Virus record (IMG/VR): IMGVR_UViG_3300032245_001105
Span: 1 to 57,704 of that record
Origin: a virus
Taxonomy: Duplodnaviria > Caudoviricetes
Strand: one strand, 5' to 3'
DNA length: 57,704 nucleotides
The position numbers and the translations under genes were made by a program. Below are positions 27,039-56,274 of the stretch, piece after piece. Numbering within the stretch: position 1 is the first letter of the stretch; every line of letters starts with the position of its first letter. The notes below the pieces were generated by a model. It ran no database searches. It was given only the letters and a program-made list of their open reading frames with translations, and was not told where the DNA came from.

Positions 27039-30000
27039 TTATATCAGCAAGTATTCTTTGCTTATTCTTACATTGGTACTTGCATTCAAAGCCACAAACT
27101 GCAATTGTGCATTTGATCCGCTTTGTGTAGCAGTAACTATACCCAAGTTACCATTGGTCTGTATTGTACCATATGCTGTCACTGTTGCAGTGGTTCCATT
27201 GCTGATCAGCAATGCTTCCATCACTTGGTAGTTGGCACCGTTTGTGGCCTGTACTGTGTACTTAGCACTACGATATGTTCCAGTAGACATTGTATCAATT
27301 GTGGTTGCCACGTTGGCACTAGCAATTGCTGTGTTGGCCAATAATGATACTTGTGCACCATCTGTATTAATTCTGTAACGAGCGTTCTTGGTTGCTGTTC
27401 CAGTACTGATTGTGACACCATCTGTATTGTCAACATCAACTGCATTATATCCAGTTGCATCATTAAGAGCCACAACAGTTTCAGTGGTTGTCAATCTTCT
27501 AACGTCAATGATATCCCCGCTTGCAGGAGCTTCAGTGAAACGCAATGTTGTACTAGAAACAACCGAGTACGCTAGTGTTGGTATTTGAATAACACCGTTA
27601 ATACTAACAATAGTTGCGGCAGTTGTAGTTGTCCCAGCTAATGTAAAGTCTGTTGTTGTGCCATCACCGTTAAACTGTTCATCTGTAATAACAGTAAATG
27701 CCGTTGTGGCTGCCATCCATTGTGTACCTGTATACCACTCAACAGCATTCTGCGTTGTGCTATAACGGAACATACCAGCAACATCAGTTTGACCTTGATT
27801 GCCTGGACGCTGACTGTTTGTACCAACTGGCAACTTAATTGAGTCTGTTGTGTTGATGTTTAGTTTAGCACCCGCAACCACATTGCCTGCCACTGCACTA
27901 TTACCAATGATAACAGTATCGTAACTGGCACTTGGACGAGCCCAAATTAATGTAGCATCATTTTTACCACGAACAATGTAGTCTGATCCAGCAGTTTGGC
28001 TGCTGTTAAATACTGCGGCATTACCAAAATACACATTGCCTGCAATACCCATACCGCCTACAACTTGTAGTGCTCCTGTACCAGTGCTGGTACTGTTGGT
28101 TGTGCTGTTAACAACAACAGCACCGCCAGTATAAACACTACCACTGATACCAACACCGCCAGTAACAATCAATGCACCCGATGTGGTGCTTGTACTAGTT
28201 AATCCGCCGTTGATTGCGGCAGCACTGGCTGTTAATGTGCCAGTACCAGGATTGTAGCTCAATAAGCTACTGGTTCCAGGAATACTGTTGCCACCGTTGA
28301 CATTGGCAAATGTTGGGTAGAATGTATCGTTGGTGTTTAACGAGACTGTTTGTGTGTAGAAAGCAACGTTGGCCGCTGTGGCCACTGCCGCAACTGTGGC
28401 AGTTGAGATTGCTGTAATACGACCATATGCGTCAGTTGTGATTACCGGCACTGCACTGGCACTACCAGTTGTTATGGCACCAGGACCAACAGGTGTTAAA
28501 TTAATATCTGTACCACTTATAGTCAAGTTACCTGCACCTGAACTTGTGCTAACTACACGAGTTCCGTTGTCGTATACACCGCGACCATATAATGTGCTGT
28601 TTACTGCTGTATTGCCACCAATGTTGACACGACCTGCAATACCCGCACCACCCTTGACCAACAACGCACCTTCAGTTGTATTAGATGATGCTGTTGTGGC
28701 ATTGATACATACGTTACCTGAAGTATCAACAAACACAGCCTGTGTTGCAGTGATTGTTCCCGTTGGAACTGTTAATATTTCCAAGTATGTGCCTTGTGCT
28801 GAATCTGTAAAGTTTTCAGCGGCGCCAACTCTAATTCCTGACGCGGCATACGCGGCCCCAGTAAATGTGCTTGATCCAAATCCTTTGAAGTTTAACGCTC
28901 CAATTGTATCCCCTGACAATAATGCAGATGGAGATGCGACTGTTCCTCGTCCTCTTCTAGCATAGAATCCACTAGCAACTCCAGGAGCAAAAGCGCCAAA
29001 GCTGTCCAGGCCATAGAAACCATTTTTACCATCTAGTGTTGTGGTATGTACCACTGCGTTGGCAAACAAGGCTGGTGTAGTTGTGTTTGGATTGATTGTT
29101 AATGGGCTGTCTGCATTGATTGCACTTTGTGTTGGGCCAATCAACAAGTTACCTTGTAAGGCATGTACGCTAGATGTTGCGCCTGCGTAGATATTGCCTG
29201 CGATACCTGCGCCACCTGCTACTACCAATGCACCTGTTGTGGTGCTGGTTGATGGCACTGTGGCTGTAATATTAGCCCAGGTGCTGGCTGTCAGTGTGGT
29301 AAATGCTCCAGTACCGGCTGTGACATTACCAATAGCCAGTGCTTGCAGTCCACTGACATTACCTGTTGTGAATGTATAGGTACCTGGGGTGATGTTACCA
29401 ATTGCTTTGGCTTGTAATCCACCAATGGTGCCTGTTGTCAAGGTTGACTCACCAGTTACACCCAAGTTGCCAGTTATTGCAGTGTTGGTTCCAACATACA
29501 AGTTACCACCAACACCAACACCACCTGTAACAACCACTGCACCAGTTGTTGAACTGATGCTGGTACCTGTACCAAGGAATGTGCCAGTTGTACCGTACAC
29601 ATTGCCCAGCAAGTATGGAGTTGCAATGTTTCCTGTTGCCACCATTACATTAGATGTACTGGATATTGTTACACGGTTACCTGTAGCTGTAGTAAGATTC
29701 AAGTTACCATCAGAGCCTTCGCCAATTACGGATCCGCCTAGGTATTCTGTCTGGCCGCTTAACCAGATATCTTTAAATCTGTTACCGCTTGTACCCAAGC
29801 TGTATGTGATGTTTGCACTTGGTACAATGTTACCTGTAATTGTAATGTTGCCACCAACTGTCAAATTGCCAGTTGTGCTGGCTGTGGTAAATGCGCCTGT
29901 TCCAGGTGTTACATTACCAATTGATCTTGCTTGCAATCCACCAATATTACCTGTTGTCAAGGTTGAGTCACCAGTTACACCCAGTGTGCCTGTTACTACT

Positions 30001-33000
30001 GCATTGACACCAACATTAATATTACCACCAACATAAACGTTACCAGCAACACCAGCTCCGCCTGCTACCTGCAATGCGCCAGTAGTTGTGCTTGTGCTTG
30101 TGGTTGTGTTTGACAACAACAAACTACCCATCTGTGCGTTACCAAATGTACCAGTTACATTACCAGCAACTTCGGTTGCGTTAATCAAGAACTGCAATGA
30201 CTTGGTTGAATTTTCTAAACCAACAAATGCCAATGCATCAGCACCGTTATAATAGTGCATACGCAAGCCAATGTCTTTGCCATCATCAGTAGACCAAGTG
30301 GCCAAGTTGCCGTATGTGTGTAAGTCAATAATGCTGTCATAGTGCGTTACTTGTCCGCCGTCAAATGCCACATTACCTGCATGGTTTGTGATACCACCAA
30401 TCCAAACGTTGCCGGCAATGCCTGCGCCGCCTTTGGCTACAAATGACCCGGTTGTTATGCTTGTGCTTGGTGCTGAACTTGCGGCAACAATGTTACCACC
30501 GGAGATAATTGTGCTGGTTGTGTTTACTAGGCTAAACGAACCAGTCGTACCGCTAAATGTTCCAGCACTCAATGTGTATGTACTAGGATTATAAGCAAGA
30601 CCGCCGTCCCAACCCGATACACCTAAAATAGTATTACCACTTGATGCTGAAGCAGTACCGATATTACTGAATACTAAGGCATAGCTTTGGTTATTGGTCA
30701 AGTAAGTAACATTAGAGTACATGCTCACGTTGGCTGTTGGATATGTTCCGCTGATAGAGCCCAGACTGATATTGGTAATATTACTACCATCACCTTTAAG
30801 GTATGCACCAATGTTACCAATTGTGGCAGAGTTGACACTTGTTGCATTGACAGTTGTAGCAAAGACTGTGTTAACCCCGCTAATGTTTCCACTGGCACCT
30901 GTAGTAACTAAACTACCGCCAATATAGACGTTACCAACAACACCTGCGCCGCCTGCTACTACCAATGCACCTGTTGTGGTGCTGGTTGCGGCTGTTGTAC
31001 TTGTTAGGTTTGCATTACCACCAATCAAATTACCATTCAATGTTGTACTGGCATTGCCAACTGTGGCTGCGTAGACATTTGTGGCATTAGCAGTTGTAAA
31101 GAATGCTGTGGCAGGTGTAGCATTACCGATAATGGTATTTTGTATGCCGCCACCAATGTAAGCAGAACCGATTACGCCAATTCCGCCTGCAACTTGTAGA
31201 GCTCCACTCGAAGTACTGGTTGCGGCTGTGGTGTTGGCCAATATCAATGAACCGGCTTTTACTGTGTCGTAAGCAAGCCCAACATCGTTCCAGTTGATTG
31301 CTGATCCACTTGGTTCACTAAAGACATTACTAAAGAAAATCCAAGTGTTACTAGCAAAGCTTCTTGCTAGACCACTGTGTCTATATTGGTTTGCCGTATA
31401 GTCACTATAGAAACCAATGTCATAATTGTAATAGCTCAAATTGCCCAGGGCTTGTAAGTATAACAAGGGATCCTGAACTGTAAGCATGTTGGTTGTTGTA
31501 GCAATTAGGTTACCGGCATAAATGTTGCCACCAACCCATAAGTTGCCAAGAATACCAGCACCGCCAGTTATCTGCAATGCGCCTGTGTTTGTGCTTGTGG
31601 CATCTGTACTGTTTGTAATTTGTGTAACGCCGCTGGCACTCAATGTTGTAAATGCACCTGTGCCGCCCACGAAACCCAGCGCACTGATGGTGCTGGTACT
31701 TGGATTAACGTTGACACTGGTGGCAACCACTGTGCCCACATTACCCGACGATTTGTCTGCCAACTGTGGGTAGTATGTGGCATTGGTTGTTGATGTTGCA
31801 ACATTGTCATACATGCTGACATTGGCTGTTGTAACTGTGCCTACAACGTTAGCGGCAATGATGTTGCTCAAGAATCCACCGTTACCAACCACGCTTGCAC
31901 CAACATTACCGATTGTAGTTGCATTTACATTGGTGGCGTTAATAGTTGTAATATTGCCATATGAGCCAGTTAAGACTGCGCTTGCATTGCCAATTGTTGC
32001 GGCGTTGACTGTTGCGGCAATTACTGTGCCACTAAATGTGCCAGTTGAACCCACGTGTGCGGCACCAACATTACCAATTGTTGCGGCTTGTACTGTGGTA
32101 GCATTGGCTGTCGTAAAATATCCTAGACCAGGTGTTACATTACCAATTGCTGTAGCTTGTATACTTGTTGCATTGGCTGTGGTGAACACCGCCGAGCCAG
32201 GTGTTACATTACCAATTGCTGTGACTTGTAAACTGGTTAGTGTACCAGCATTACCTGTTATGGCAGCACCAGTATTGCCAATTGTGACTGCGTTGACATT
32301 GGTTGCAATTACATTTGATGTGAATAAGTTGCTAACACCACTGATATTACCATTGGATCCTGTTGTCTGTATGTTGGCCGCAGTTACAGTATAGCCACTG
32401 TATACGTTGCCAGCAACACCAATACCACCTGCAACAATCAATGCACCTGTTGTGGTGCTGGTAGCGGCTGTTGTAGCCGTGATGTTTGCCCAATTTGTGA
32501 TAGTTGCAGTTGAACCATATAGTATGCTAGATGCATTACCAATTGTGGCCGCATACAAGTTGGTGGCATTGGCTGTTGTAAAGAAAGCTGTGGTTGCGGC
32601 TGTGTTGCCAATAATACCTTGCAAACTACCTGCAGTCATTGTGGTAAATGCACCGGTGCCAGGTGTGACATTACCAATTTGTACCGCTTGTAGGCCACCT
32701 GTTGTGGCTGTATTAAATGTACCTGTGGTAAATGCGCCTGTACCAGGTGTGACATTACCAATTTGTACTGCTTGTAGGCCACCAGTTGTGGCTGTTGTAA
32801 ACACGGCTGTACCAGGTGTAACATTACCGATTTGTACCGCTTGTAGGCCACCAGTTGTGGTTGTGGTGAATACTGCTGTGTTGGGTGTTGTAGCACCAAT
32901 TGATCCGTTGTGTGCGGCATTGACAATTGTAGTACTCAATGTACCTGTGCTGGGATTGTATCCTAAAGAACTGTTAACACCCACAATGGTGTTACCGCTG

Positions 33001-33647
33001 GTAGAAATGTTACTGAACTGTGGGTAGAAAATTTGGTTGGTAGTAAATGCAGTTACATTGTCAAAATAACTAACGTTACCGGTATTGGCTGCGCCGGCTG
33101 TTAGAGCCGCTACACCTCTTCCGCCAACATAACGAACACCAACAACCCAAATTTGTGATCCAATTGAGCTAGGAACGTTTGTATCAGCAAAGTTAAGAAC
33201 ACCAGCTTGGTAATCAAAGAACCACGAGTCGTTGTTGCCTGAACCGTCAATGGGCAATGCTGTCAGTGTTTGTGCTGTGCTTGTTGTACCACCTGAACCG
33301 GTGTAAACCTTGACTTGATAGCCGGCGCCAAATTCTGGGCCAATCCAGTCTGTTAAGTTTGTTTTCCAAGTGCGGTTTGTTGCCGCGGTACCGTCGTTGG
33401 TTGCCTGCACCGAACTTGACAGTGTATCTCTGTAAACAGAATACACGCTGGCAACGTTACTGGTTGGCAATGTGGCTGTACTGGTGATTTGGTCAGCCGC
33501 AATGTACATGCTGTCGCCACGGATCAATAGCGGACTGCTTATACTTTCGTTGGCAGGACTCTTGTTGGTGGATGTGTCTGTTTTGGCCACACCAAAGCCA
33601 AGTTTCTTAAAGAGATAGTCTACTTTTTGTGCGTCTGAGATAGCCAT
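27039..33647 (-). CDS. Giant (2202 aa) repeat-rich fibre/appendage protein
   Basis: G/T/N/A-rich. Many STTTGAL(V/Q)VAGG.G..GN and IGNVTPGT..FTT repeats. Confidence 0.85.
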   Translation of the reverse strand: MAISDAQKVDYLFKKLGFGVAKTDTSTNKSPANESISSPLLIRGDSMYIAADQITSTATLPTSNVASVYSVYRDTLSSSVQATNDGTAATNRTWKTNLTDWIGPEFGAGYQVKVYTGSGGTTSTAQTLTALPIDGSGNNDSWFFDYQAGVLNFADTNVPSSIGSQIWVVGVRYVGGRGVAALTAGAANTGNVSYFDNVTAFTTNQIFYPQFSNISTSGNTIVGVNSSLGYNPSTGTLSTTIVNAAHNGSIGATTPNTAVFTTTTTGGLQAVQIGNVTPGTAVFTTATTGGLQAVQIGNVTPGTGAFTTGTFNTATTGGLQAVQIGNVTPGTGAFTTMTAGSLQGIIGNTAATTAFFTTANATNLYAATIGNASSILYGSTATITNWANITATTAATSTTTGALIVAGGIGVAGNVYSGYTVTAANIQTTGSNGNISGVSNLFTSNVIATNVNAVTIGNTGAAITGNAGTLTSLQVTAIGNVTPGSAVFTTANATSIQATAIGNVTPGLGYFTTANATTVQAATIGNVGAAHVGSTGTFSGTVIAATVNAATIGNASAVLTGSYGNITTINATNVNATTIGNVGASVVGNGGFLSNIIAANVVGTVTTANVSMYDNVATSTTNATYYPQLADKSSGNVGTVVATSVNVNPSTSTISALGFVGGTGAFTTLSASGVTQITNSTDATSTNTGALQITGGAGILGNLWVGGNIYAGNLIATTTNMLTVQDPLLYLQALGNLSYYNYDIGFYSDYTANQYRHSGLARSFASNTWIFFSNVFSEPSGSAINWNDVGLAYDTVKAGSLILANTTAATSTSSGALQVAGGIGVIGSAYIGGGIQNTIIGNATPATAFFTTANATNVYAATVGNASTTLNGNLIGGNANLTSTTAATSTTTGALVVAGGAGVVGNVYIGGSLVTTGASGNISGVNTVFATTVNATSVNSATIGNIGAYLKGDGSNITNISLGSISGTYPTANVSMYSNVTYLTNNQSYALVFSNIGTASASSGNTILGVSGWDGGLAYNPSTYTLSAGTFSGTTGSFSLVNTTSTIISGGNIVAASSAPSTSITTGSFVAKGGAGIAGNVWIGGITNHAGNVAFDGGQVTHYDSIIDLHTYGNLATWSTDDGKDIGLRMHYYNGADALAFVGLENSTKSLQFLINATEVAGNVTGTFGNAQMGSLLLSNTTTSTSTTTGALQVAGGAGVAGNVYVGGNINVGVNAVVTGTLGVTGDSTLTTGNIGGLQARSIGNVTPGTGAFTTASTTGNLTVGGNITITGNIVPSANITYSLGTSGNRFKDIWLSGQTEYLGGSVIGEGSDGNLNLTTATGNRVTISSTSNVMVATGNIATPYLLGNVYGTTGTFLGTGTSISSTTGAVVVTGGVGVGGNLYVGTNTAITGNLGVTGESTLTTGTIGGLQAKAIGNITPGTYTFTTGNVSGLQALAIGNVTAGTGAFTTLTASTWANITATVPSTSTTTGALVVAGGAGIAGNIYAGATSSVHALQGNLLIGPTQSAINADSPLTINPNTTTPALFANAVVHTTTLDGKNGFYGLDSFGAFAPGVASGFYARRGRGTVASPSALLSGDTIGALNFKGFGSSTFTGAAYAASGIRVGAAENFTDSAQGTYLEILTVPTGTITATQAVFVDTSGNVCINATTASSNTTEGALLVKGGAGIAGRVNIGGNTAVNSTLYGRGVYDNGTRVVSTSSGAGNLTISGTDINLTPVGPGAITTGSASAVPVITTDAYGRITAISTATVAAVATAANVAFYTQTVSLNTNDTFYPTFANVNGGNSIPGTSSLLSYNPGTGTLTASAAAINGGLTSTSTTSGALIVTGGVGISGSVYTGGAVVVNSTTNSTSTGTGALQVVGGMGIAGNVYFGNAAVFNSSQTAGSDYIVRGKNDATLIWARPSASYDTVIIGNSAVAGNVVAGAKLNINTTDSIKLPVGTNSQRPGNQGQTDVAGMFRYSTTQNAVEWYTGTQWMAATTAFTVITDEQFNGDGTTTDFTLAGTTTTAATIVSINGVIQIPTLAYSVVSSTTLRFTEAPASGDIIDVRRLTTTETVVALNDATGYNAVDVDNTDGVTISTGTATKNARYRINTDGAQVSLLANTAIASANVATTIDTMSTGTYRSAKYTVQATNGANYQVMEALLISNGTTATVTAYGTIQTNGNLGIVTATQSGSNAQLQFVALNASTNVRISKEYLLI
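32640..32880 (-). repeat. Near-tandem 69-84-nt coding repeats (TTGGLQAVQIGNVTPGT..FTT x3)
   Basis: Three near-identical copies of ACATTACC(A/G)ATTTGTAC(C/T)GCTTGTAGGCCACC. Confidence 0.85.
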
Positions 33648-47227: not shown

Positions 47228-49582
47228 TTAATAGCTGTTGTTCAATAAACCTTGAGAGATATCTTTCTGGTCGCCCATCAAATCTGCCATGGTCACGTGA
47301 TAGCTCAATTGTTTGCTTGCTGTGTCCTTCATCTCTTCCATGTGCTTGACCAAATCATTCATTGAACTGGTATTCTGTGAGTCTTTATGCACTTGTATTA
47401 GCTCTTGAAATAATTCTTTAATTTCAGATAAAAATTCTTCGTTAGCATCACCGGAATTTGTTACATCTTTAGGAAACAACTCAGCAAGCATACTGCCAAA
47501 GTCAGGTAACTGCATGGCTCCACTGAGAGTAACTGGTATAGTCCTACCATCGGGCAACGGCACAGCGGCTTCAGGACCGGCTTCACCAAATATGGCTTTT
47601 CTGTTGGTTATACCACCAACTGCATACTGTTGCATAGAGGCTTCTATGGCACTGGTATCATTGTCTTTGATCGAAGCTTCATACGCTTCTTTTTTCTTTT
47701 GCTGTTCAGGAGTTAAATTGGCGCCATAATATTTCTGCAGAATAGTACCATCTTTTGTACTTTCATTATATTCTTTACGAAGTTTTTCTTGATCTTCATG
47801 TTTAGCACGTTTACCTTCTATTTCATTGATCTTGCCCTTGACATATCCAGAAAAATCCACAGCAACCTTCAGGGCTTCTTGAAAGTAGGCCATGGTCTCT
47901 GCGGCATTCTTTGCCAAGATGTTGGCATAGGCCGGCAAGTTGTCAGTAGCGAACTTTTCCATTTGATTTTGGAACGTGGTCATTTGACTAGTTAAATCTT
48001 GATAACCTTTGGTCAGACTATCTGTGGCTGTGGCTTGACTTTCTGCCGCGGCCCCCGATTCCTCAACTGCTTCAGCATTATACATTGCAGATGCACTGAT
48101 CTGATTTTGCATGTCGGCAGCGCCTTGCAACGATCCACCAAGACGGTTAGCAACACCAATTGCATTACCATTGGCTTTGTTCAAATCTCTTTGTGCTTGA
48201 CCTGCGGCTGACGCTTGTTTCAATGTTTCTTTTTGTGCAGCCGACGCATCTTTGCCTGAATCTTTAATAGTGTCATATGAACCTTTAATGAGTTTTTCAA
48301 CTTCTTTGTTTTGGCTCATAGCAATGTTGGTTGCCTGATCCGTGATAGCGGTGCCACCCGATGACACATATTCCAAGAAACCTTTCTTGGCATAATCAGG
48401 CATAGCGGCATAGGCCGCCTGGAATTTTTTAGCTTCCTCAGGACTCAGCTGGGCCATGATGTCTGCTTCCATGCCTTTCTTGGCCGCTTCCTCCATGGCC
48501 TTTTTAGCATCCTTGCCGGTAATGTCTGACAACACTTTCAGATCTTTGGCATAAGTTCTAGTTGTTGCGGCCAATTCTGCATCACTCATCCTGCGAGTAT
48601 TGCCTGCAGCCTTGTCCAAGGCATTAACCTGAGCTACCAGTTGGGCTTGCTCTTCGTAACTATAGCCCAAGGCTAACAGCTCATCGCGCACAGTATTACC
48701 GCTGGTACCCATGGTGGTAGCCAAGGTCTTTGCACCCTGTGCCATCATACGAGCGGCTTCGGCGTGTGTTACGCCCATCAACTTGATCTCTTCGCTGGAT
48801 GCCAACACAGCAGATTGCAACTGTTTCATGCCCATGCCTGAATCATGTGCTATGTTACGCATTTCAATCATGCCACCTGCAAAGCTGGCACCTACCTTGG
48901 TATACTCCTTTAATGCATCTGCTGACTTTTGAAATTCTTTGGCAAATATTTCATTGGCCATTTTCAGGATAGTGGTGGCAAAGTCGATCACAGCCTTGGC
49001 TGCCGCACTCATTGCATTTACCAATCCCGTACCAACACTACTAAACGGACCCAATATGCCTGCGGCCGCTGTACCCAATCCTGCGGCCACATCCACTGCG
49101 GCCTTGGCGGCCGCTCCAGCCAAATCAATATTGGTTGACAGCATGGTTGCGGCCGCACCAATGGGATTTTCTGCCATCTGATCATAACTGCTAACAAATG
49201 CCGAAGCCACTGCGGCCGCAGTTTGTGCCAGTGTTGATGTAAAACCCAGCAGTGCATTGCCCACTTGCGAAGCTCCTGTAGACACACTGCTACCCAAGTT
49301 CTTCATGTACTTGCTAGTAGCTTCAGCCTGTTGATTATTCTTTCCAGTTTGTTTGGTTGATTCCTCAGAGGCCTTGGTATTCTTCTTACGAGCTTCTATT
49401 TCTTTTTCTTGTTGTTTTAGTAGATCCTGTGCATTGCCAGCACCGTTGTTACCCACCATGCCACCGCCAGCGCCGCCTTTGCCCTTCATTACATCTAAAA
49501 GTTTTTGTAGTGTTTCTTCAGACGCGGCATTTTCAGCAATGACATTGCCAATTCCAGGTATGTTAATTTGTACGCTAGCCAT
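47228..49582 (-). CDS. Tape-measure-like protein
   Basis: Ala-rich helical protein with C-terminal YAVGGI...FGEAGPEAAVPL motif. Confidence 0.65.
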   Translation of the reverse strand: MASVQINIPGIGNVIAENAASEETLQKLLDVMKGKGGAGGGMVGNNGAGNAQDLLKQQEKEIEARKKNTKASEESTKQTGKNNQQAEATSKYMKNLGSSVSTGASQVGNALLGFTSTLAQTAAAVASAFVSSYDQMAENPIGAAATMLSTNIDLAGAAAKAAVDVAAGLGTAAAGILGPFSSVGTGLVNAMSAAAKAVIDFATTILKMANEIFAKEFQKSADALKEYTKVGASFAGGMIEMRNIAHDSGMGMKQLQSAVLASSEEIKLMGVTHAEAARMMAQGAKTLATTMGTSGNTVRDELLALGYSYEEQAQLVAQVNALDKAAGNTRRMSDAELAATTRTYAKDLKVLSDITGKDAKKAMEEAAKKGMEADIMAQLSPEEAKKFQAAYAAMPDYAKKGFLEYVSSGGTAITDQATNIAMSQNKEVEKLIKGSYDTIKDSGKDASAAQKETLKQASAAGQAQRDLNKANGNAIGVANRLGGSLQGAADMQNQISASAMYNAEAVEESGAAAESQATATDSLTKGYQDLTSQMTTFQNQMEKFATDNLPAYANILAKNAAETMAYFQEALKVAVDFSGYVKGKINEIEGKRAKHEDQEKLRKEYNESTKDGTILQKYYGANLTPEQQKKKEAYEASIKDNDTSAIEASMQQYAVGGITNRKAIFGEAGPEAAVPLPDGRTIPVTLSGAMQLPDFGSMLAELFPKDVTNSGDANEEFLSEIKELFQELIQVHKDSQNTSSMNDLVKHMEEMKDTASKQLSYHVTMADLMGDQKDISQGLLNNSY

Positions 49583-50706: not shown

Positions 50707-51243
50707 ATGAAAACCATTGTACTATTAGCCTTATACGACGAAGCTCCCAAAATGGCCGACTTGCCGTTTGTGTTTTACACCGGAGTAGGCAAAGTAAATG
50801 CGGCCGCAAAAGCCGCAGTATTGATAGAACGACACCGACCCCAACATGTCATCAACTTCGGCACTGCTGGCGGCATAACACAAAGCACCGGCTTTTACCA
50901 AGCCACTAGATTTGTACAACGCGACATGCTGTGTGAGAGCCTGGGATTTGGACCCGGACAAACACCATACGAAACCAATGCTGTTATTGAATTTGCCCCG
51001 GGACTAACTTGCAGTACCGGAGATGACTTTGTTGAAAATCCCTCGCTGGCAATACCTGCAGATCTAGTAGACATGGAAGCATATGCCATAGCCAAAGTAT
51101 GCCAATCAGCCCGTGTTCAATTCAGTTGTTATAAATTTGTAACCGATGCAGCCAACACCACAGCGGCCGATGAGTGGGGCAACCGAGTTGTGCATGGGCA
51201 AACCCATTACCTACTAAAATTAAGAGAATTGGGACTATATTAA
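50707..51243 (+). CDS. mtnN: 5'-methylthioadenosine / S-adenosylhomocysteine nucleosidase (PNP_UDP_1 family)
   Basis: TGVGKVNAA, VINFGTAGG, STGDDFV, VDMEAYAIA and KFVTD motifs. Confidence 0.85.
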   Translation: MKTIVLLALYDEAPKMADLPFVFYTGVGKVNAAAKAAVLIERHRPQHVINFGTAGGITQSTGFYQATRFVQRDMLCESLGFGPGQTPYETNAVIEFAPGLTCSTGDDFVENPSLAIPADLVDMEAYAIAKVCQSARVQFSCYKFVTDAANTTAADEWGNRVVHGQTHYLLKLRELGLY

Positions 51244-51756
51244 ATGAACTTGAAAAGCATAATTACAGAAACGCCCAATTGGCCCACTACAGGTGTTAAC
51301 TTTCTCGACATAACACCCATATTAGAAAACCCCAGTGTATTTGACTGGTGTATAGATCAATTGGTTGCTAGTGCCAAAACAGCAACCAGCATTGTTGCTG
51401 TGGAGAGTAGAGGATTTCCTATTGGAGCAGTACTAGCCAATAGGCTTGGTATCCCGCTGGTCTTGGTACGCAAACCCGGTAAATTACCTGGTGCTGTATA
51501 CTCAGAGAGCTACGCCACGGAATACAGCACAGACACCGTAGAGATCAAGCAGTCAGCTAATTTGGGTACACACCCCATGATCATTGATGATCTATTGGCC
51601 ACTGGTGGTACAGTTCGTGCAGTCGTGACATTACTTAAAAAGAATTTTAATCCAATTCAAGTATCATGTGGGGTACTAATTAATCTTAGTTTCTTGCCAG
51701 GCCAACAACTATTAAGAGATCTTCAAATAGATCTAACAAGTTTAGAAACATATTAA
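51244..51756 (+). CDS. apt: Adenine phosphoribosyltransferase
   Basis: PNWPTTGVNFLDITP, ESRGF, RKPGKLPG and PRPP-binding IIDDLLATGGT motifs. Confidence 0.92.
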   Translation: MNLKSIITETPNWPTTGVNFLDITPILENPSVFDWCIDQLVASAKTATSIVAVESRGFPIGAVLANRLGIPLVLVRKPGKLPGAVYSESYATEYSTDTVEIKQSANLGTHPMIIDDLLATGGTVRAVVTLLKKNFNPIQVSCGVLINLSFLPGQQLLRDLQIDLTSLETY

Positions 51757-52196
51757 GATCTCTAACGAGATCTGTTGTTTCGCTTGCGCTCACAACACTA
51801 TTCTCTGACTTTAGTATCATCCAGATTAATCGGTCACACTTTGCCCGTACAGGGCAAAGATAGCATCATCCGAGTAGCACGATCACTAGTATTAGAACTA
51901 CAAAGGTCTATAATTCACTATAAACTATTTCACAGGCGGTTGTCCGGTACCTGCTCATTCTGTCTTTTCACAACGGCGGATCGACGATAACATACTAGCG
52001 TAATTGTCGACCGTGTACGATCACTCGTACGTCTTTTCAGCCTTAAACATTTTCTTCAAACAATCAAACCGCGGCAATTAGCGATCTTCGTCCTGTCAAG
52101 GATAGTGATTGAGTGCTCTGTACGGCGCAGAGTCTTCCGTCCCAGTGACCCGAGGTCCTGTTTTCTTGGGCACACGTTTTTAGACTTGTGCGAGTC
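51757..52196 (-). ncRNA. Candidate ~440-nt highly structured non-coding RNA downstream of the GIY-YIG gene
   Basis: Longest non-coding gap in the window. More than 10 stems found by eye, a GUGA GNRA tetraloop, G-U pairs favouring the minus strand, a pseudoknot and internal repeats. Confidence 0.7.
51812..51886 (-). repeat. Two 26-nt direct repeats GTGAYC-N9-GGATGATRCTA separated by an 8-bp hairpin
   Basis: Copies at 51861-51886 and 51812-51837; hairpin CTTTGCCC-N5-GGGCAAAG at 51839-51859. Confidence 0.85.
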
Positions 52197-52628
52197 TTAA
52201 CCGTTTAACTTTTTTATGTGGGAGCCATGGACACGAACAGAGATTTGTCCGTTGTAATAATCTTGTGATTCTAGCACTTTGTGTGTGAATTGTTCTCTTG
52301 CTTCGATGTAACTGCATTCAGCTTTGGAGCGACAGTAATACATGATTTCTCGTGTAAACTGATCTGTGCCTAATGCCGCAACGTCTCGATTCAATTCTTC
52401 GTTTGAGCCATAATATGTTTGCCAATCAGAATCAATTTTGCTTCTGATCTTCTTCTTTTTCTTTGTGCCGTTTTTAAGTTTTACTACTTTGTATGTTGTC
52501 TTTGCGAATTTTGATAATTTTTTACCTATGTATTTGCGCCCTGATACACGATTCGTTATGATATAAACGAAGCCCACGCAGTCTTCTGGTAAAGTCTCTA
52601 CTGGGTTTCCTTGATATAGCCATGACAT
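52197..52628 (-). CDS. Stand-alone GIY-YIG (Seg-like) nuclease domain protein
   Basis: GFVYIITN...KYIGKK, YYGS, conserved E (YIEAREQ) and YYN. Lys-rich insert. No C-terminal DNA-binding domain. Confidence 0.85.
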   Translation of the reverse strand: MSWLYQGNPVETLPEDCVGFVYIITNRVSGRKYIGKKLSKFAKTTYKVVKLKNGTKKKKKIRSKIDSDWQTYYGSNEELNRDVAALGTDQFTREIMYYCRSKAECSYIEAREQFTHKVLESQDYYNGQISVRVHGSHIKKLNG

Positions 52629-52647
52629 GTAATATAATTATGACAAG

Positions 52648-53652
52648 TTACCATGATGTTGAATATTCTTGATTTACTATGTTTTTGTTGCATTTTTGTT
52701 GACATTCCTGCCATTTGAAAGCCTTAAAGTCATCGTCCCAAAATGGGTCAGTGACTGCATCTGTTAAGGTCCTATGATGCAGATTGAATTGTTCGGCTAG
52801 AGTCTGCCATTCTGTGTTATGACTGTAGCGATTTGCTACCCAGCAACAGGGAAACAGTCTACCTCTAGCATCAATGTAAAGTCCTTTATTACCAATTTCA
52901 CACAAGGGCTTGACATTGTTTTGTATTATAACATCTTTGTATAATTGTATGTTAGTTTCTGAAATTGTAGTAGTTCTATTGGTAAAATCTGTAACATCTC
53001 GTTCAAATCTATGACTAGAGCTGACAAATCGAACGCTGGGTTGCAATGGATCGTCTATACCGTATGACGGATAAACGCTACCAAACTTGGTACTGCGGGT
53101 AAGTTGGAAACGATCAACGCCCAGTGTCTTGGCCATGGTTTGCATACGATCTAAACGATCTTCGTTAAATCGAAACGCAATAGCGGCCCATACAATAGTA
53201 CAAGGACTTGCGGCCCTTAAGGTCTGTAAACCTGCAACAATACTGTCATAATCGCTGTTTACACGGTATAAGTTGTTGCTTACATCGTCATATCCGTCAA
53301 TGCTAAAATGTACACTGTCTTGTTCTGTTAGTGCTTGACCAAGCTGTTGCCACCATTCGATCTTTTTGTGTGATCCGTTTGTAATGATAACAATCTCAAC
53401 AGGCTTTATACTCTTGATGTATTCTATAACAGGAATCAAATCATGTGCATAAATGGGATCACCATCATCTCCGCAGAACGTGATCTTCTCTACATTTGCT
53501 TTTATAAACTCAGGTGTAAAGTTGCGCTTGAAAAACTCCAAGTCTAATTCGGTGTTGACCAGTGTATCGGGAACTTCTTGACGGGCACAGCGAGGACAGC
53601 GCAAGGTGCACTTACTGCTGATTTCAATGTGAAAGTGCCAAGTTGCTAACAT
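52648..53652 (-). CDS. Radical SAM enzyme with C-terminal SPASM/twitch-like Cys cluster (start MLATWH)
   Basis: CTLRCPRC; FCGDDGDP; TNGS; FSIDG; C...YIDARGRLFPCCW...CQQKC. Confidence 0.9.
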   Translation of the reverse strand: MLATWHFHIEISSKCTLRCPRCARQEVPDTLVNTELDLEFFKRNFTPEFIKANVEKITFCGDDGDPIYAHDLIPVIEYIKSIKPVEIVIITNGSHKKIEWWQQLGQALTEQDSVHFSIDGYDDVSNNLYRVNSDYDSIVAGLQTLRAASPCTIVWAAIAFRFNEDRLDRMQTMAKTLGVDRFQLTRSTKFGSVYPSYGIDDPLQPSVRFVSSSHRFERDVTDFTNRTTTISETNIQLYKDVIIQNNVKPLCEIGNKGLYIDARGRLFPCCWVANRYSHNTEWQTLAEQFNLHHRTLTDAVTDPFWDDDFKAFKWQECQQKCNKNIVNQEYSTSW

Positions 53653-54521
53653 AGTGGTACATCTCGTTGCCATTGCCCTGTGAAGTTGGACTGGTTATTG
53701 ACGGTGCTACAGGTTTCTCGACAAATGGGATTACAGTCGTTGGTGTTCCAAGATGCTGTTATAGCATCAAAGTCATTGACAGTATTTTCGCCATACCCCA
53801 GCCAACAGCAGGGATGAAATATACCCTTTGCACTAAGATACAAGCTCTGATCCCGATTTCTAAAACAATCAATTGGACCTTGTTCTACAACAGGACGAGT
53901 CCAACCTCGGGGCGGCTTGAGCCAGTTGACAGTGGGCTCGCGTTTGCTGACTTTGGCACGGAACCAACCAAAGCCCATGTCCTTTGCCAACTGCTCGCAG
54001 GCAGCGACTTGGTGTTCGTTGTGTTCGTAAACCAACATATCCCATTGAGCATTACCTCCAGCACGAATAAATGTTTCTGCATTACGCATCACTCGGTCCC
54101 AACTAACATTCTTACGATAGATATGATTGGTGTCTTCTAAGCCGTCGATGCTAAACACCACATAGTCAGTGGGCTTGTGCAGTACATTGGCTAAATCGGC
54201 CCACCAATGCGTTGCTTGTAGTCCGCCGTTGGTATTCATGCCCAACACAATGCTACTGTTTACTTCTCTAACATACGACAGGATAGACTTGGATGTTTCA
54301 TTCGCAGCCGGGTCTCCGTAGTTACCGCACATAAACAGTTTGTCTAGTCTGTAAATGATTTTCTCAGGCACCGTGTTCTTAAACTCTTGTAGACTTAATT
54401 TGTGCTGAACATGTTTATTAAACGCGGGATCTGTTTCGCGGGCACAGCTAGGGCAGGCCGCTTGACATACATCAGTCGGCTCTACATGCAGTACTCTAAC
54501 AGTTTCAAACAATTTCGACAT
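53646..54521 (-). CDS. Radical SAM enzyme with SPASM/twitch-like Cys cluster (start MSKLFE)
   Basis: CQAACPSC; MCGNYGDP; TNGG; FSIDGL; C...GIFHPCCW...CRETC. Confidence 0.9.
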   Translation of the reverse strand: MSKLFETVRVLHVEPTDVCQAACPSCARETDPAFNKHVQHKLSLQEFKNTVPEKIIYRLDKLFMCGNYGDPAANETSKSILSYVREVNSSIVLGMNTNGGLQATHWWADLANVLHKPTDYVVFSIDGLEDTNHIYRKNVSWDRVMRNAETFIRAGGNAQWDMLVYEHNEHQVAACEQLAKDMGFGWFRAKVSKREPTVNWLKPPRGWTRPVVEQGPIDCFRNRDQSLYLSAKGIFHPCCWLGYGENTVNDFDAITASWNTNDCNPICRETCSTVNNQSNFTGQWQRDVPLC

Positions 54522-56274
54522 CAGTATTGTAAGTGGTAAATCCGTTTTCTTTAACCACATGGAGTGTGTTGTTCACCCGTCCTGACAATTCATCTTTGTG
54601 ACTTACTAGCCAAATTGATTTGTTGCTGTCACGGCTCATTTTCTTTAGAATAGCAAGACTGTTTTCGACACCCGAACTATCCATGCCTGAATCAACAAGT
54701 TCATCGATGAACAACAAGTTAATGGGTTGATATAGACTTTCCCATACATCACGGAATGCCCATGATAAACTCAATATAAGTCTATTGCGTTCACCACGCG
54801 ATAAATTGTCAAAGTCCAAATCTCTACCTAGTTCACTGATTGCTACAGTTAAATCGTTGTTGAACTTGACAGTATGCGGCAAGCCGATACGATCCAAGTA
54901 CTGTCCCAGGCGAGCATTCAAATAACTTAGGTTCTGATCAATAATACGCTTACGGATAAAACTGTCTTTGTTGGTCAATAATTTAAGCAAGAACTCTTGG
55001 TGATCCTTTAAACTTGCCAACTCGTTCATGGTACTGAAATCAATTTCTTCTAGGGCTTGTTCACTCATGTCGGTAATTTGATCAGCGTATGGATCTGCTT
55101 CTGCTTCTTTGGCAGTTAGTTGTGCCAACACACTGGCCATGCTACTACGATGTTCAAATGCATCACTTTCTCGATCGTAAAATACTTCGGGTCTTGAACC
55201 TAAAGCACCCAAGGCCTTTAGTGAGTCGGTATGTTCTATCCATTGTGTATTTGTTGCCAAGGACTGTAGTGCGGCTTCTTGTAAATCTTTTTTCTTTTGT
55301 GCCAGCACAGCTTCTTGTTTAGAATCATGAAATCCTTGACCACACGCATGACATGTATGATTTTCTAAACTTTCAATTTCTACTTTGAGTGTTTCAATTA
55401 GTTTTTGTTCACGACGCTCATCTAGCTCACAGCGTTTGATCCACGAGTTTAAATCATTAATTTTTTTACTTTTTTCATTATAAGCAGACAATGCAAGATG
55501 CGCCGCCAGCTCTGCTTCGATGTCGATTCGACTTAGTTCATCAAACGCCGATTGGAACCGAGCAACATCTTCGTTGTGCTTGGCTTGCCACATGCGCTGA
55601 CGCTTACGCAAGTTTTCAATCTGTTCTTCAATGCGTTTATTTGCATCGCCTACAGCCTTGATGCGGAATTCCTCGGCAGTAATGGCATCCTTGGTGGCCT
55701 TGCCTAGTTCTTTAAGACGTTCGGCTTTTTCACTTAGTAGGGTAATACCCAATAACTGCTCAATGATGGTTCGTTGATCATTGGCTTTTAAACTTAGAAA
55801 AGGCTCGGTATAGGTATTGAGCGCCACAATGTGCTTGAACATGTCATGACTCATGCCCAACATGCGCTCAATTTCGGCTTGGGTTTCTCTTGAATCGCCT
55901 TGACTATCGTCGGTGATTTCTTTTTCGTTGCCGCTGATCCAGAATTTCATAATGCCGGGTTTGCGACCACGCTCGATACGATAGTCAACACCCCCAACTT
56001 CAAAATCAATACAAACCAACATGCCTTTGCTGTTGGTCTTGTTGATCAGATTGTCTTTTTTAATGTTGGTTAGGGCGTTGCCGTAAAGGGCATAGGACAG
56101 CGCATTTATAATTGTTGTCTTCCCGGTCCCGTTACGAGCTCCTGAGTCATCGCCCCCTAGGTCTAGGTTTTCACCCAACACCAAGGTCAAGTCTCTGCGA
56201 TCAAAGTTAACCGCTTGTGTGGTATTGCCCACACTCATGAAGTTTTTTACAGTTAAGTCTTTTATTTTAAACAT
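54505..56274 (-). CDS. gp46: Recombination endonuclease ATPase subunit (SbcC/Rad50-like)
   Basis: NGTGKTT Walker A, CHAC zinc hook, LSRGE signature, LLFIDE Walker B, VSH. Confidence 0.95.
   Translation of the reverse strand: MFKIKDLTVKNFMSVGNTTQAVNFDRRDLTLVLGENLDLGGDDSGARNGTGKTTIINALSYALYGNALTNIKKDNLINKTNSKGMLVCIDFEVGGVDYRIERGRKPGIMKFWISGNEKEITDDSQGDSRETQAEIERMLGMSHDMFKHIVALNTYTEPFLSLKANDQRTIIEQLLGITLLSEKAERLKELGKATKDAITAEEFRIKAVGDANKRIEEQIENLRKRQRMWQAKHNEDVARFQSAFDELSRIDIEAELAAHLALSAYNEKSKKINDLNSWIKRCELDERREQKLIETLKVEIESLENHTCHACGQGFHDSKQEAVLAQKKKDLQEAALQSLATNTQWIEHTDSLKALGALGSRPEVFYDRESDAFEHRSSMASVLAQLTAKEAEADPYADQITDMSEQALEEIDFSTMNELASLKDHQEFLLKLLTNKDSFIRKRIIDQNLSYLNARLGQYLDRIGLPHTVKFNNDLTVAISELGRDLDFDNLSRGERNRLILSLSWAFRDVWESLYQPINLLFIDELVDSGMDSSGVENSLAILKKMSRDSNKSIWLVSHKDELSGRVNNTLHVVKENGFTTYNTDVEIV

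Follow-up and report, generated by a model that had tools for sequence, protein, structure and literature searches.

The question raised by this locus is why a gene-free stretch of a phage genome should carry two short boxes that look like parts of a guide RNA. The stretch of DNA that was analyzed (the window) comprised the 57,704 nt of IMG/VR viral contig IMGVR_UViG_3300032245_001105, a record estimated at 16% of the genome. Its gene content included T4-type baseplate, radical-SAM, and nucleotide-salvage genes, and no tRNA genes were found in the record. The twin boxes were on the minus strand (51886-51812), inside a gene-free stretch of 440 nt (51757-52196). The initial annotation described them as box C/D- or K-turn-like repeats with conserved flanks, each enclosing a different 9-nt core, and proposed that they were either programmable guide segments or paired binding sites. 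Comparison with relatives pointed elsewhere: there is good support that the boxes arose by an ancient duplication within the 3′ domain of a structured non-coding RNA of ~440 nt, each box being one half of it, and in this RNA a seven-letter word that follows each core was the same in both copies even as it changed from relative to relative.

Unit 1 read GUGAUC-GUGCUACUC-GGAUGAUGCUA (51886-51861, minus strand) and unit 2 read GUGACC-GAUUAAUCU-GGAUGAUACUA (51837-51812, minus strand); between them was an 8-bp hairpin, CUUUGCCC-UGUAC-GGGCAAAG (51859-51839, minus strand). Each unit consisted of three parts. In unit 1 these were a D-like box (GUGAUC, 51881-51886), which was NUGAC in most relatives and lay in the unit-1 hairpin stem there; core 1 (GUGCUACUC, 51872-51880), the last three letters of which, CUC (51874-51872), were invariant in 110/110 sequences; and word copy 1 (GGAUGAU, 51865-51871), followed by G. 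In unit 2 they were a D-like box (GUGACC, 51832-51837); core 2 (GAUUAAUCU, 51823-51831), ending in UCU (51825-51823), which was likewise invariant (110/110), and for which no cognate-specific partner was found; and word copy 2 (GGAUGAU, 51816-51822), followed by A. Across the family a unit ran from NUGAC through a short core of variable sequence to A and YYY (CUC for unit 1, UCU for unit 2), followed by the 7-nt word and R.

The pattern TGAYC-N9-GGATGATRCTA had two matches in the 57,704 bases of the window and none in 100 dinucleotide-preserving shuffles. The strict twin-box pattern occurred in 10 viral contigs, a 17-mer from a conserved hairpin loop of the RNA retrieved at least 119 viral stretches, and an nhmmer search with the window RNA matched, over most of the length of that RNA, at least 121 viral loci and one small contig of a metagenome-assembled genome (MAG). 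Because the same architecture was present in the 10 strict-pattern contigs and in the nhmmer loci, the repeat is conserved and not a product of chance. Two further parts of the initial annotation held up: there were exactly two units in every parsed relative, and the 8-bp hairpin between them was borne out by changes on both sides at four of its eight pairs, with 93.3% of cells paired. Its picture of constant flanks around differing 9-nt cores was correct in part. The cores did vary, but their length, 9 nt in the window, ranged from 8 to 13 nt across relatives, and the flanks were not constant, since the 7-mer GGAUGAU switched among relatives in both copies.

For the comparison of the two copies, units were aligned on their invariant triplets (CUC in unit 1, UCU in unit 2), and the word was taken as the seven letters after the triplet. 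With a phage parsing pattern that allowed only [AG][GC]AT[AG]A[N], 110 of 115 sequences were parsed, and in every one of them (110/110) the two 7-mers were identical. Three word positions were highly polymorphic (G/A, G/A, and U/A/G). The conserved letters were the A before YYY, A5 and U6 in the phages, and A8 everywhere. Two differences between the units were fixed, namely the triplet (CUC versus UCU) and the next letter after the word (G versus A), while partial co-variation between units was seen in the three letters that precede the triplet and in the second letter beyond the word. The copies were spaced 47-61 nt apart by a connector that includes the hairpin. In a MAFFT alignment of 103 full-length RNAs, the mutual information (MI) between copy 1 and copy 2 equaled the column entropy at positions 3, 7, and 9 (102/102); the best other column of the whole RNA reached only 0.26-0.53 bits. 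Differing copies were found at 0 of 117 loci.

The identity was kept through many changes of the word itself. The phage words were GGAUGAU, AGAUGAU, GGAUAAU, AGAUAAU, GGAUGAA, AGAUGAA, GGAUGAG, AGAUGAG, GCAUAAU, and GAAUGAU; ACAUGAA occurred in class C, one of two RNA classes with a different 5′ domain (below). Among the sequences of classes B and C this new word, again twin, was present in seven distinct sequences. Switches were counted by parsimony on a FastTree tree of the remaining RNA with the words masked. The minimum numbers of changes at word positions 3, 4, 7, and 9 were 18, 2, 9, and 10, respectively, and the tree required at least 31 word-type switches, with the same change in both copies every time. 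Among 33 sister pairs, eight differed in their word.

The same rule was seen beyond the phages. Three bacterial loci carried AGCGAAA or GGCGAAA, twin and again after CUC and UCU. A metagenome scan with the loop motif of the bacterial type gave 62 distinct RNAs; words in the metagenome and bacterial-type set included AGCGAAA, GACAAAA, AUCGAAA, AUCAAAA, GGUGAAA, ACCAAAA, and AGAGAAA, among others. Here the copies were identical in 49 of the 62, as paired by least distance, a choice biased towards identity, and 12 of the 13 mismatched pairs differed only at the first or last letter. Judged from these sequences, the identity constraint is old and spans words that share almost nothing beyond the A at position 8.

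The guide and K-turn reading of the boxes fared badly in this comparison: neither do the boxes qualify as K-turns nor the cores as guides. What the reading had in its favor was that GAUGA and UGA resemble the cores of box C and box D, and that the flank pairs of the proposed internal loop (GU/RC and YC/GG) were compatible in 81-93% of cells, for the local and the crosswise fold alike. The changes at these pairs were one-sided, however, giving no compensatory support, and at the single pair that showed many types, C.A combinations (21/78) matched the expectation for independent columns. The GA of the putative K-turn was not invariant: word position 7 was A in 48 of 110 RNAs, position 4 was C or A in some, and the GA of the D box was GG in some phage RNAs and part of UAG or UGG in bacterial forms. 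Only 2-bp flanks could be drawn as stems, and with both GG paired the bulge would have 2 nt against the required 3 nt. In a C/D RNA, moreover, the segment between the D-like and C-like boxes is a loop and not a guide. There were two units only, inside a large conserved RNA, and the bacterial words (RGCGAAA) are unlike a C box. The remark in the initial annotation that no Nop-domain protein was recognized agreed with the domain searches, in which Nop (PF01798) and L7Ae (PF01248) were not found in the record (~16% of the genome) and not found among representatives of the 10 commonest neighbor-gene clusters. Box C/D-type K-turns, or TIGR- or bridge-like loops framing 9-nt guides, are therefore an extremely improbable account of the locus.

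In the alignment of homologues the N9 segment varied, as guides would, yet the 5′ half of core 1 lay in a co-varying stem and the flanks were not constant; the cores tracked phylogeny, changing slowly and partly for structural reasons. Adjacent matches to both 9-mers were absent from the window. Multimerization by kissing through the self-complementary GAUUAAUC could apply to one lineage only, because other core-2 sequences (e.g., GAACAA and AUAGAA) are not palindromic. A related candidate, palindromic pairing or kissing of AUCURGAU, was rejected, being confined to unit 2 and failing for words with GCAU, GAAU, or ACAU. Thus, of the two proposals that opened the question, guides failed these tests, while paired binding sites remained compatible with the data and were strengthened by the strict identity of the 7-mers.

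The structure around the words was tested through duplex energies, cognate segments being set against pairings of segments taken from different RNAs. The D-like box of unit 1 (D1) together with the 5′ half of core 1 paired with the 3′ end of box 1 and the linker in a cognate-specific manner (p = 5e-8); in the window phage this unit-1 stem was marginal because its linker is only 5 nt. Pairing of core 1 with core 2, which the crosswise fold of the initial annotation had placed face to face, was rejected: some lineages are complementary here (UUCC/GGAA, AUUGU/ACAAU), but in phages cognate pairs were no better than others (p = 0.49). The flanks offered no way of choosing between the local and crosswise folds, which are indistinguishable because the word copies are identical. 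Two other arrangements were also rejected. Unit 2 as a hairpin like unit 1 was without support in the phages (p = 0.52) and in the bacterial type (p = 0.58), and a linker that switches between D1 and the D-like box of unit 2 (D2) was weak in the bacterial type (p = 0.025, 0.14) and without support in the phages. The stretch 5′ of D1 and the stretch 3′ of word 2 were conservedly complementary (UAAGU/ACUUA). For the family, these pairing tests place word copy 1 in a hairpin loop and word copy 2 on the strand that joins the central hairpin to the closing helix. The pyrimidine just before the word can pair with the letter just after it, as C-G in unit 1 (105/110) and as U-A or U.G in unit 2 (99/110), which suggests a 7-nt loop closed by one pair in each unit, a single pair being no proof of a helix. 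RNAalifold, run on the MAFFT alignment, returned only two obvious hairpins.

What reads the words was sought in the RNA, in the flanking DNA, and in the neighboring protein. The exact reverse complement of the word was not found at a consistent place within ~1 kb across 117 loci. Nor was a cognate cis complement found at a constant position of the alignment for 5-7-nt sub-windows of the word, the best of which matched in 24 of 102 RNAs with G.U pairs allowed, against 13 in permuted controls; in the bacterial type the cis complement of the word was likewise not found. The gene directly upstream of the RNA encodes a small GIY-YIG protein (below), and among 82 distinct proteins no column tracked word position 3 (maximum MI 0.28 versus an entropy of 1.0). 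Several registers in which the word would be the complement of a tRNA anticodon loop, or a codon, were considered by reasoning only, and none fitted both the phage and the bacterial words. With the identity mirrored at least 31 times, and neither a cis complement nor a protein that tracks the word, the list of readings is short: a reader in trans, contact of like with like, or direct repeats.

The explanation preferred here, possible though short of probable, is that both words serve equally to display their sequence to a single partner, which reads it in trans. Both words would be single-stranded and equivalent, and would be required to carry the same sequence, each being read base by base by one kind of partner outside the RNA. 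The anatomy of the RNA and the identity rule are shown; we infer that this reader acts in trans and by base pairing. The simplest partner would be a complementary nucleic acid, present in two copies or as one engaged alternately with the two words. It would probably be drawn from a ready-made repertoire and not co-evolve with the RNA, because the word switches often without a matching change in cis or in the neighboring protein.

Several observations weigh against this explanation. The trans nucleic-acid partner was reached by elimination, and the partner itself was not found. A trans partner that co-mutated 31 times is implausible, so that the ready-made repertoire is an extra assumption the explanation needs. 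As that repertoire, tRNA anticodon loops fit poorly by reasoning, since position 37 would need a purine partner. In ~1.07 Mb of flanking DNA, complements of a locus's own word showed only a mild excess, 83 versus 54 for other word types, in a control unmatched for base composition. The switch count may have been inflated by phage recombination. The parsing pattern limited what could be recognized; of the five unparsed sequences (5/115) three were truncated and one had a deletion, while one had GAAUGAU in both copies. Among bacterial-type RNAs, 13 of 62 pairs were non-identical in spite of a choice of pairs that favored identity. Finally, the copies differ at one locus, L314, where copy 1 reads GGAUGAU and copy 2 reads AGAUGAU; since its halves match two co-occurring types, recombination or a chimeric assembly may account for it.

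Contact of like with like would do without a third party altogether. The two words would touch directly through parallel, non-Watson-Crick homo-pairs, and identity would be the pairing rule itself. The 31 mirrored switches and the equality of MI and entropy resemble the compensatory change seen in a stem, the end letters tolerate mismatch as the ends of helices do, and a 47-61-nt connector with a hairpin would permit a parallel arrangement; the failure to find a cis or protein partner points the same way. We know of no natural RNA with 5-7 consecutive mixed-sequence parallel homo-pairs, however, which counts against this alternative, and with a hairpin loop as the modeled site of copy 1 and a junction strand as that of copy 2, the two would not need to lie side by side. 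It is an unlikely explanation.

A dimeric or two-domain RNA-binding protein, of phage or host, that binds both words would account for two equivalent sites 47-61 nt apart with conserved letters in each; it corresponds to the second proposal of the initial annotation. Such a protein would not enforce identity if it ignored the variable letters, and if it read them it would have needed at least 31 changes of specificity. The GIY-YIG neighbor, the only constant one, had no tracking column and was absent from the bacterial loci, and no RNA-binding domain was found among the representatives of the 10 commonest neighbor clusters. This alternative is quite unlikely.

Standard covariation analysis looks for complementary change, and identical change at two sites is invisible to it. 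The 31 or more identical changes point to a partner or a pairing rule without earlier description. It is conceivable, if doubtful, that identity covariation represents a new kind of RNA constraint, either a zipper of like with like or a pair of twin, re-programmable reading heads. As reading heads, both copies would pick one partner from the cellular repertoire, for example a particular tRNA or a DNA or RNA site, and a phage or genomic island could retarget the RNA by changing both heads. If true, identity covariation in either form would be a mechanism without described precedent, operating in an RNA abundant among freshwater T4-like phages and mobile elements of the bacteria that probably host them. 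Finding the reader would give a function to an orphan RNA and might uncover a compact device by which nature matches two sites to a single sequence. Nothing was retrieved by a literature search on covariation in structured bacteriophage RNAs together with GIY-YIG.

The RNA that carries the words extended over 51757-52196 on the minus strand, starting at the stop codon of the GIY-YIG gene and ending in a terminator-like hairpin. Its 5′ domain (52058-52196, minus strand) matched the Rfam family RF01718, Polynucleobacter-1, with 107.6 bits against a gathering score of 37; no other Rfam family was significant in the gap, even at E ≤ 10. All 10 strict-pattern contigs carried RF01718 upstream of the boxes (92.9-121.1 bits). 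In the window the twin boxes were ~170 nt 3′ of the RF01718 match on the same strand, and the Rfam model ends at 52058, so that the boxes are outside the catalogued motif. Since the nhmmer matches extended over most of the window RNA, RF01718 is only the first third of an RNA of ~420-480 nt. In a table of Weinberg et al. 2010 (PMC2864571), the habitat of Polynucleobacter-1 is given as "Burkholderiales, fresh water/estuary". The 5′ 139 nt of the window RNA match this motif, and the habitat fits lake phage contigs and the three of 151 genomes of the Burkholderiales order described below. The catalogued motif has 141 positions, in contrast to the ~440 nt here, and Rfam lacks the pseudoknotted middle part, the twin-word domain, and the two 3′ hairpins. 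Full-text searches on Polynucleobacter-1 or RF01718 gave the 2010 discovery paper and two genome papers in which the accession is simply listed, with no later work on the motif. The catalogued part is the first third of the RNA, an orphan motif since 2010, and the rest is new to Rfam.

From 5′ to 3′ the parts of the RNA were the RF01718 domain, a middle part, the twin-box domain, and hairpins H1 and H2. The middle part contained a hairpin with CAGG, the 13-nt loop UACCGGACAACCG, and CCUG (51933-51953, minus strand), with a co-varying stem (closing pair AU:56, GU:13, UA:9). Its loop ACAAC (51943-51939) is complementary to GUUGU (51974-51970), a candidate pseudoknot on the minus strand whose strands changed, as scored by eye only, from GUUGU/ACAAC to GUCGU/ACGAC in relatives and to GUUUC/GAAAC in bacterial forms. 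H1 (51774-51796, minus strand) consisted of a stem, GA, GC, a GNRA tetraloop, GC, GAA, and the stem; its stem and inner GC/GC pairs co-varied in relatives, by eye and unscored, for example in GAGUGGUAACGAA and GAACGAAGUGAA. H2 (AGAUCUC-GUUA-GAGAUCU, 51756-51773, minus strand) was terminator-like, and conservation stopped at H2 in every genomic context, making it the 3′ limit of the conserved module. Folding of the 440 nt gave a minimum free energy of −125.4 kcal/mol (z = −2.02).

Many phage RNAs (e.g., L046, L065, L092) had AUCGCUUCGCUCU ~10-25 nt after word copy 2. This is approximately the reverse complement of the H1 loop region GAGCGNNAGCGAA and may form an alternative pairing that opens H1. 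In some lineages a local hairpin with a CUUCG loop replaced AUCGCUUCGCUCU, and the window RNA has neither. The commonest bacterial-type RNA (L333 and metagenome loci) carried AGCGAA(A) five times: once within the loop of the conserved hairpin, once in each word, and twice in H1; phage H1 likewise keeps two AGCGA copies. Two other identities were considered and rejected. H1 as a hammerhead (UGAUGA…GAAA) failed because the "core" letters were co-varying stem letters. A small open reading frame (ORF) or ribosomal bypass (GGA and UGA ~50 nt apart, as in T4 gene 60) was inconsistent with core lengths of 8-13 nt that are not multiples of three; a bypass would also lack an upstream frame, and the stop would follow the landing site.

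Contigs from RNA libraries of three studies, derived from relatives 85-95% alike to the window, covered the GIY-YIG ORF and the RNA. Two bridged the ORF and the 5′ domain, and one crossed both boxes without a joint; such contigs cannot show ends or rare forms, the libraries may hold DNA, and the parts left uncovered prove nothing on rare forms. The GIY-YIG gene and the RNA are probably co-transcribed. In one natural variant, L013, a deletion has removed unit 1, the central hairpin, and the first part of unit 2, leaving a single word; the ends of this deletion were not at the words.

These data bear on the remaining entry of the short list, namely that the words act as short direct repeats at the level of DNA or its copying, through slipped pairing, template realignment, or recombination that would delete or duplicate the ~50-nt segment between them, for which the copies would have to be identical. 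Inside the module a word finds an always-matching complement only on the opposite strand of its twin, a strong hairpin stands between the words at a spacing of 47-61 nt, and L013 is one natural deletion variant. The position of its ends argues the other way. For two common word types, the predicted single-word junctions lay in RNA context at 0 of 184 loci, among the matches listed, and the RNA-library contig that crosses both words showed no joint, though rare forms could be missed in contigs. Beside the words, the fixed differences CUC/UCU and G/A argue against copying between units. Direct repeats are a very unlikely explanation of the identity.

The RNA was found in every phage contig of one lineage that had enough sequence 3′ of the GIY-YIG gene, and more than 100 contigs of uncultured T4-like phages carried it behind the 143-aa GIY-YIG gene. 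As a query against cultured phages it had no match. In a scan of genome contigs with the 17-mer almost all matches were chance matches in GC-rich genomes, the MAG contig being the genuine one. Two further classes, B and C, were found among loci retrieved via the upstream radical-SAM gene. Both had different 5′ domains without an Rfam match and kept the loop hairpin, the twin boxes, H1, and H2. In class B (L268, L270, L276, L297) and class C (L302, L310, L326) a 5′ domain of ~250-300 nt replaced Polynucleobacter-1, and class B had GUUCACCG/CGGUGAAC in place of the arms of the central hairpin (51839-51859, minus strand, in the window). Loci L284, L313, and L316 had an extra small ORF between the nuclease gene and the RNA.

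Among 151 genomes sampled from the Burkholderiales order, RF01718 was present in four, three of them above the cut-off, with genome sizes of 1.7-1.9 Mb. The GIY-YIG gene was not found by tblastn at the three bacterial loci, which adjoined a DUF6641 gene; an integrase fragment was also present at one of them. Small genus and family samples around the bacterial matches (4 and 7 genomes) gave no new variants.

The 143-aa GIY-YIG protein is encoded at 52197-52628 on the minus strand (Pfam SegE_GIY-YIG, E = 2e-33). It comprises the catalytic domain only, together with an insert rich in Lys (KNGTKKKKKIRSK). The protein is a member of PHROG 447, and the "NAD synthetase" label of that group looks like a propagated mis-annotation. 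A PDB sequence search with the nuclease gave nothing related. Of 123 loci, 106 had a GIY-YIG gene of 140-147 aa directly upstream of the RNA; of the remaining 17, 16 were cut within 300 nt of the RNA and one had an unclustered 175-aa ORF. In 79 of 79 related loci the GIY-YIG gene came after a radical-SAM gene. Its protein family is very large, with at least 8000 matches and all scored candidates positive, and occurred in 496 cultured-phage records, mostly cyanophages and often under the "NAD synthetase" label. In five neighborhoods inspected (Melnitz-3, P-HM1, phiM12, BUCT-ZZ01, phi4:1) no RNA-sized gap followed the gene; in all five the GIY-YIG relative was among genes of DNA and nucleotide metabolism (ribonucleotide reductase, thymidylate synthase, RecA, denV).

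A nuclease that so regularly precedes the RNA invites the explanation that the RNA is its guide or dedicated partner in RNA-guided homing, in which either the cores or the words would do the targeting. The protein is a bare catalytic domain with a stop codon that abuts the RNA, it is upstream in 106/123 loci and in 79/79 of one context, and RNA-library contigs bridge the two. The family is nevertheless mostly without the RNA, and the bacterial RNA loci are without the nuclease. Word types varied inside a single insertion context, no protein column tracked the word, and the 9-mers had no adjacent targets in the window. The chance that the RNA guides this nuclease is therefore slim. Because the family is mostly without the RNA and the bacterial loci are free of the nuclease, the GIY-YIG protein is a constant neighbor in one phage lineage and not a demonstrated partner.

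The remaining neighborhood was as follows. Most phage loci had a conserved (C/G)ATAA(C/T)TA 5-7 nt before the GIY-YIG ATG (52629-52647, minus strand, in the window), and bacterial loci had a similar TAAATAACT ~60-70 nt before the RNA. From their sequence, these elements may be a shared promoter, in which case the phage mRNA would be nearly leaderless. Two adjacent radical-SAM genes (341 and 304 aa) occupied 52648-54560 (minus strand), and a homologue of the first showed weak SPASM and Fer4_12 matches. On the other side of the RNA, a PNP/UDP-phosphorylase-like gene (178 aa) and a phosphoribosyltransferase (PRTase)-like gene (170 aa) at 50707-51756 (plus strand) converged on it. The PRTase-like gene ends at 51756 and H2 overlaps its stop codon; H2 could terminate transcription in both directions. 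Farther away were a 2202-aa ORF (27039-33647, minus strand) and a 784-aa ORF (47228-49582, minus strand), the latter without a Pfam match.

Comparison with known systems did not support membership of the RNA in the box C/D, TIGR, or bridge RNAs. A box C/D guide is a segment of 10-21 nt 5′ of box D or D′, complementary to rRNA or tRNA, and its partners are L7Ae, Nop5, and fibrillarin. The likeness is that UGA and GAUGA are near each other, twice, in a pseudo-symmetric arrangement. Here, however, there are no supported C and NC stems, the GA varies, the N9 segment is at the place of the C/D loop, fibrillarin, Nop5, and L7Ae were lacking in the comparison, and the setting is bacterial or phage. 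TIGR-Tas systems reportedly consist of many tandem units next to a Nop-domain Tas gene, with hypervariable spacers that match foreign DNA on both strands. Their tigRNAs, like the present RNA, have short repeats framing two short variable segments, in phages; in contrast, exactly two units were present here in a conserved 440-nt scaffold, with no Nop domain found. An IS110 bridge RNA is beside a DEDD/Tnp recombinase at the end of an insertion sequence, and its two loops pair with target and donor. The neighbor here is GIY-YIG, no insertion sequence ends were seen, and the words are identical rather than specific for target and donor.

The HEARO RNA and the omega-RNAs of IscB and TnpB resemble the present arrangement in that a large structured RNA starts at the 3′ end of a small nuclease gene that lies within a mobile element. 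They differ in that most of the nuclease family here lacks the RNA, which is in turn present at loci free of the nuclease; a hypervariable 3′ guide linked to the flanking DNA was not seen in the genomic contexts of the relatives. A group I intron was also considered and rejected: there was no Intron_gpI match even at E ≤ 10, and the downstream genes were variable and mostly on the other strand.

Two known RNAs come nearer to the twin words themselves. In the guanidine-II (mini-ykkC) RNA, twin loops (ACGR) match because they are self-complementary and kissing. The likeness lies in two similar loops of one RNA that must match, and the difference in words that are not self-complementary here and vary widely. 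CsrB and RsmZ decoys show one short motif repeatedly in single-stranded loops of a structured RNA, for a dimeric reader, as the twin words may do. Their GGA motif is invariant because its reader is invariant, in contrast to the word of the present RNA, which changed at least 31 times and always in both copies.

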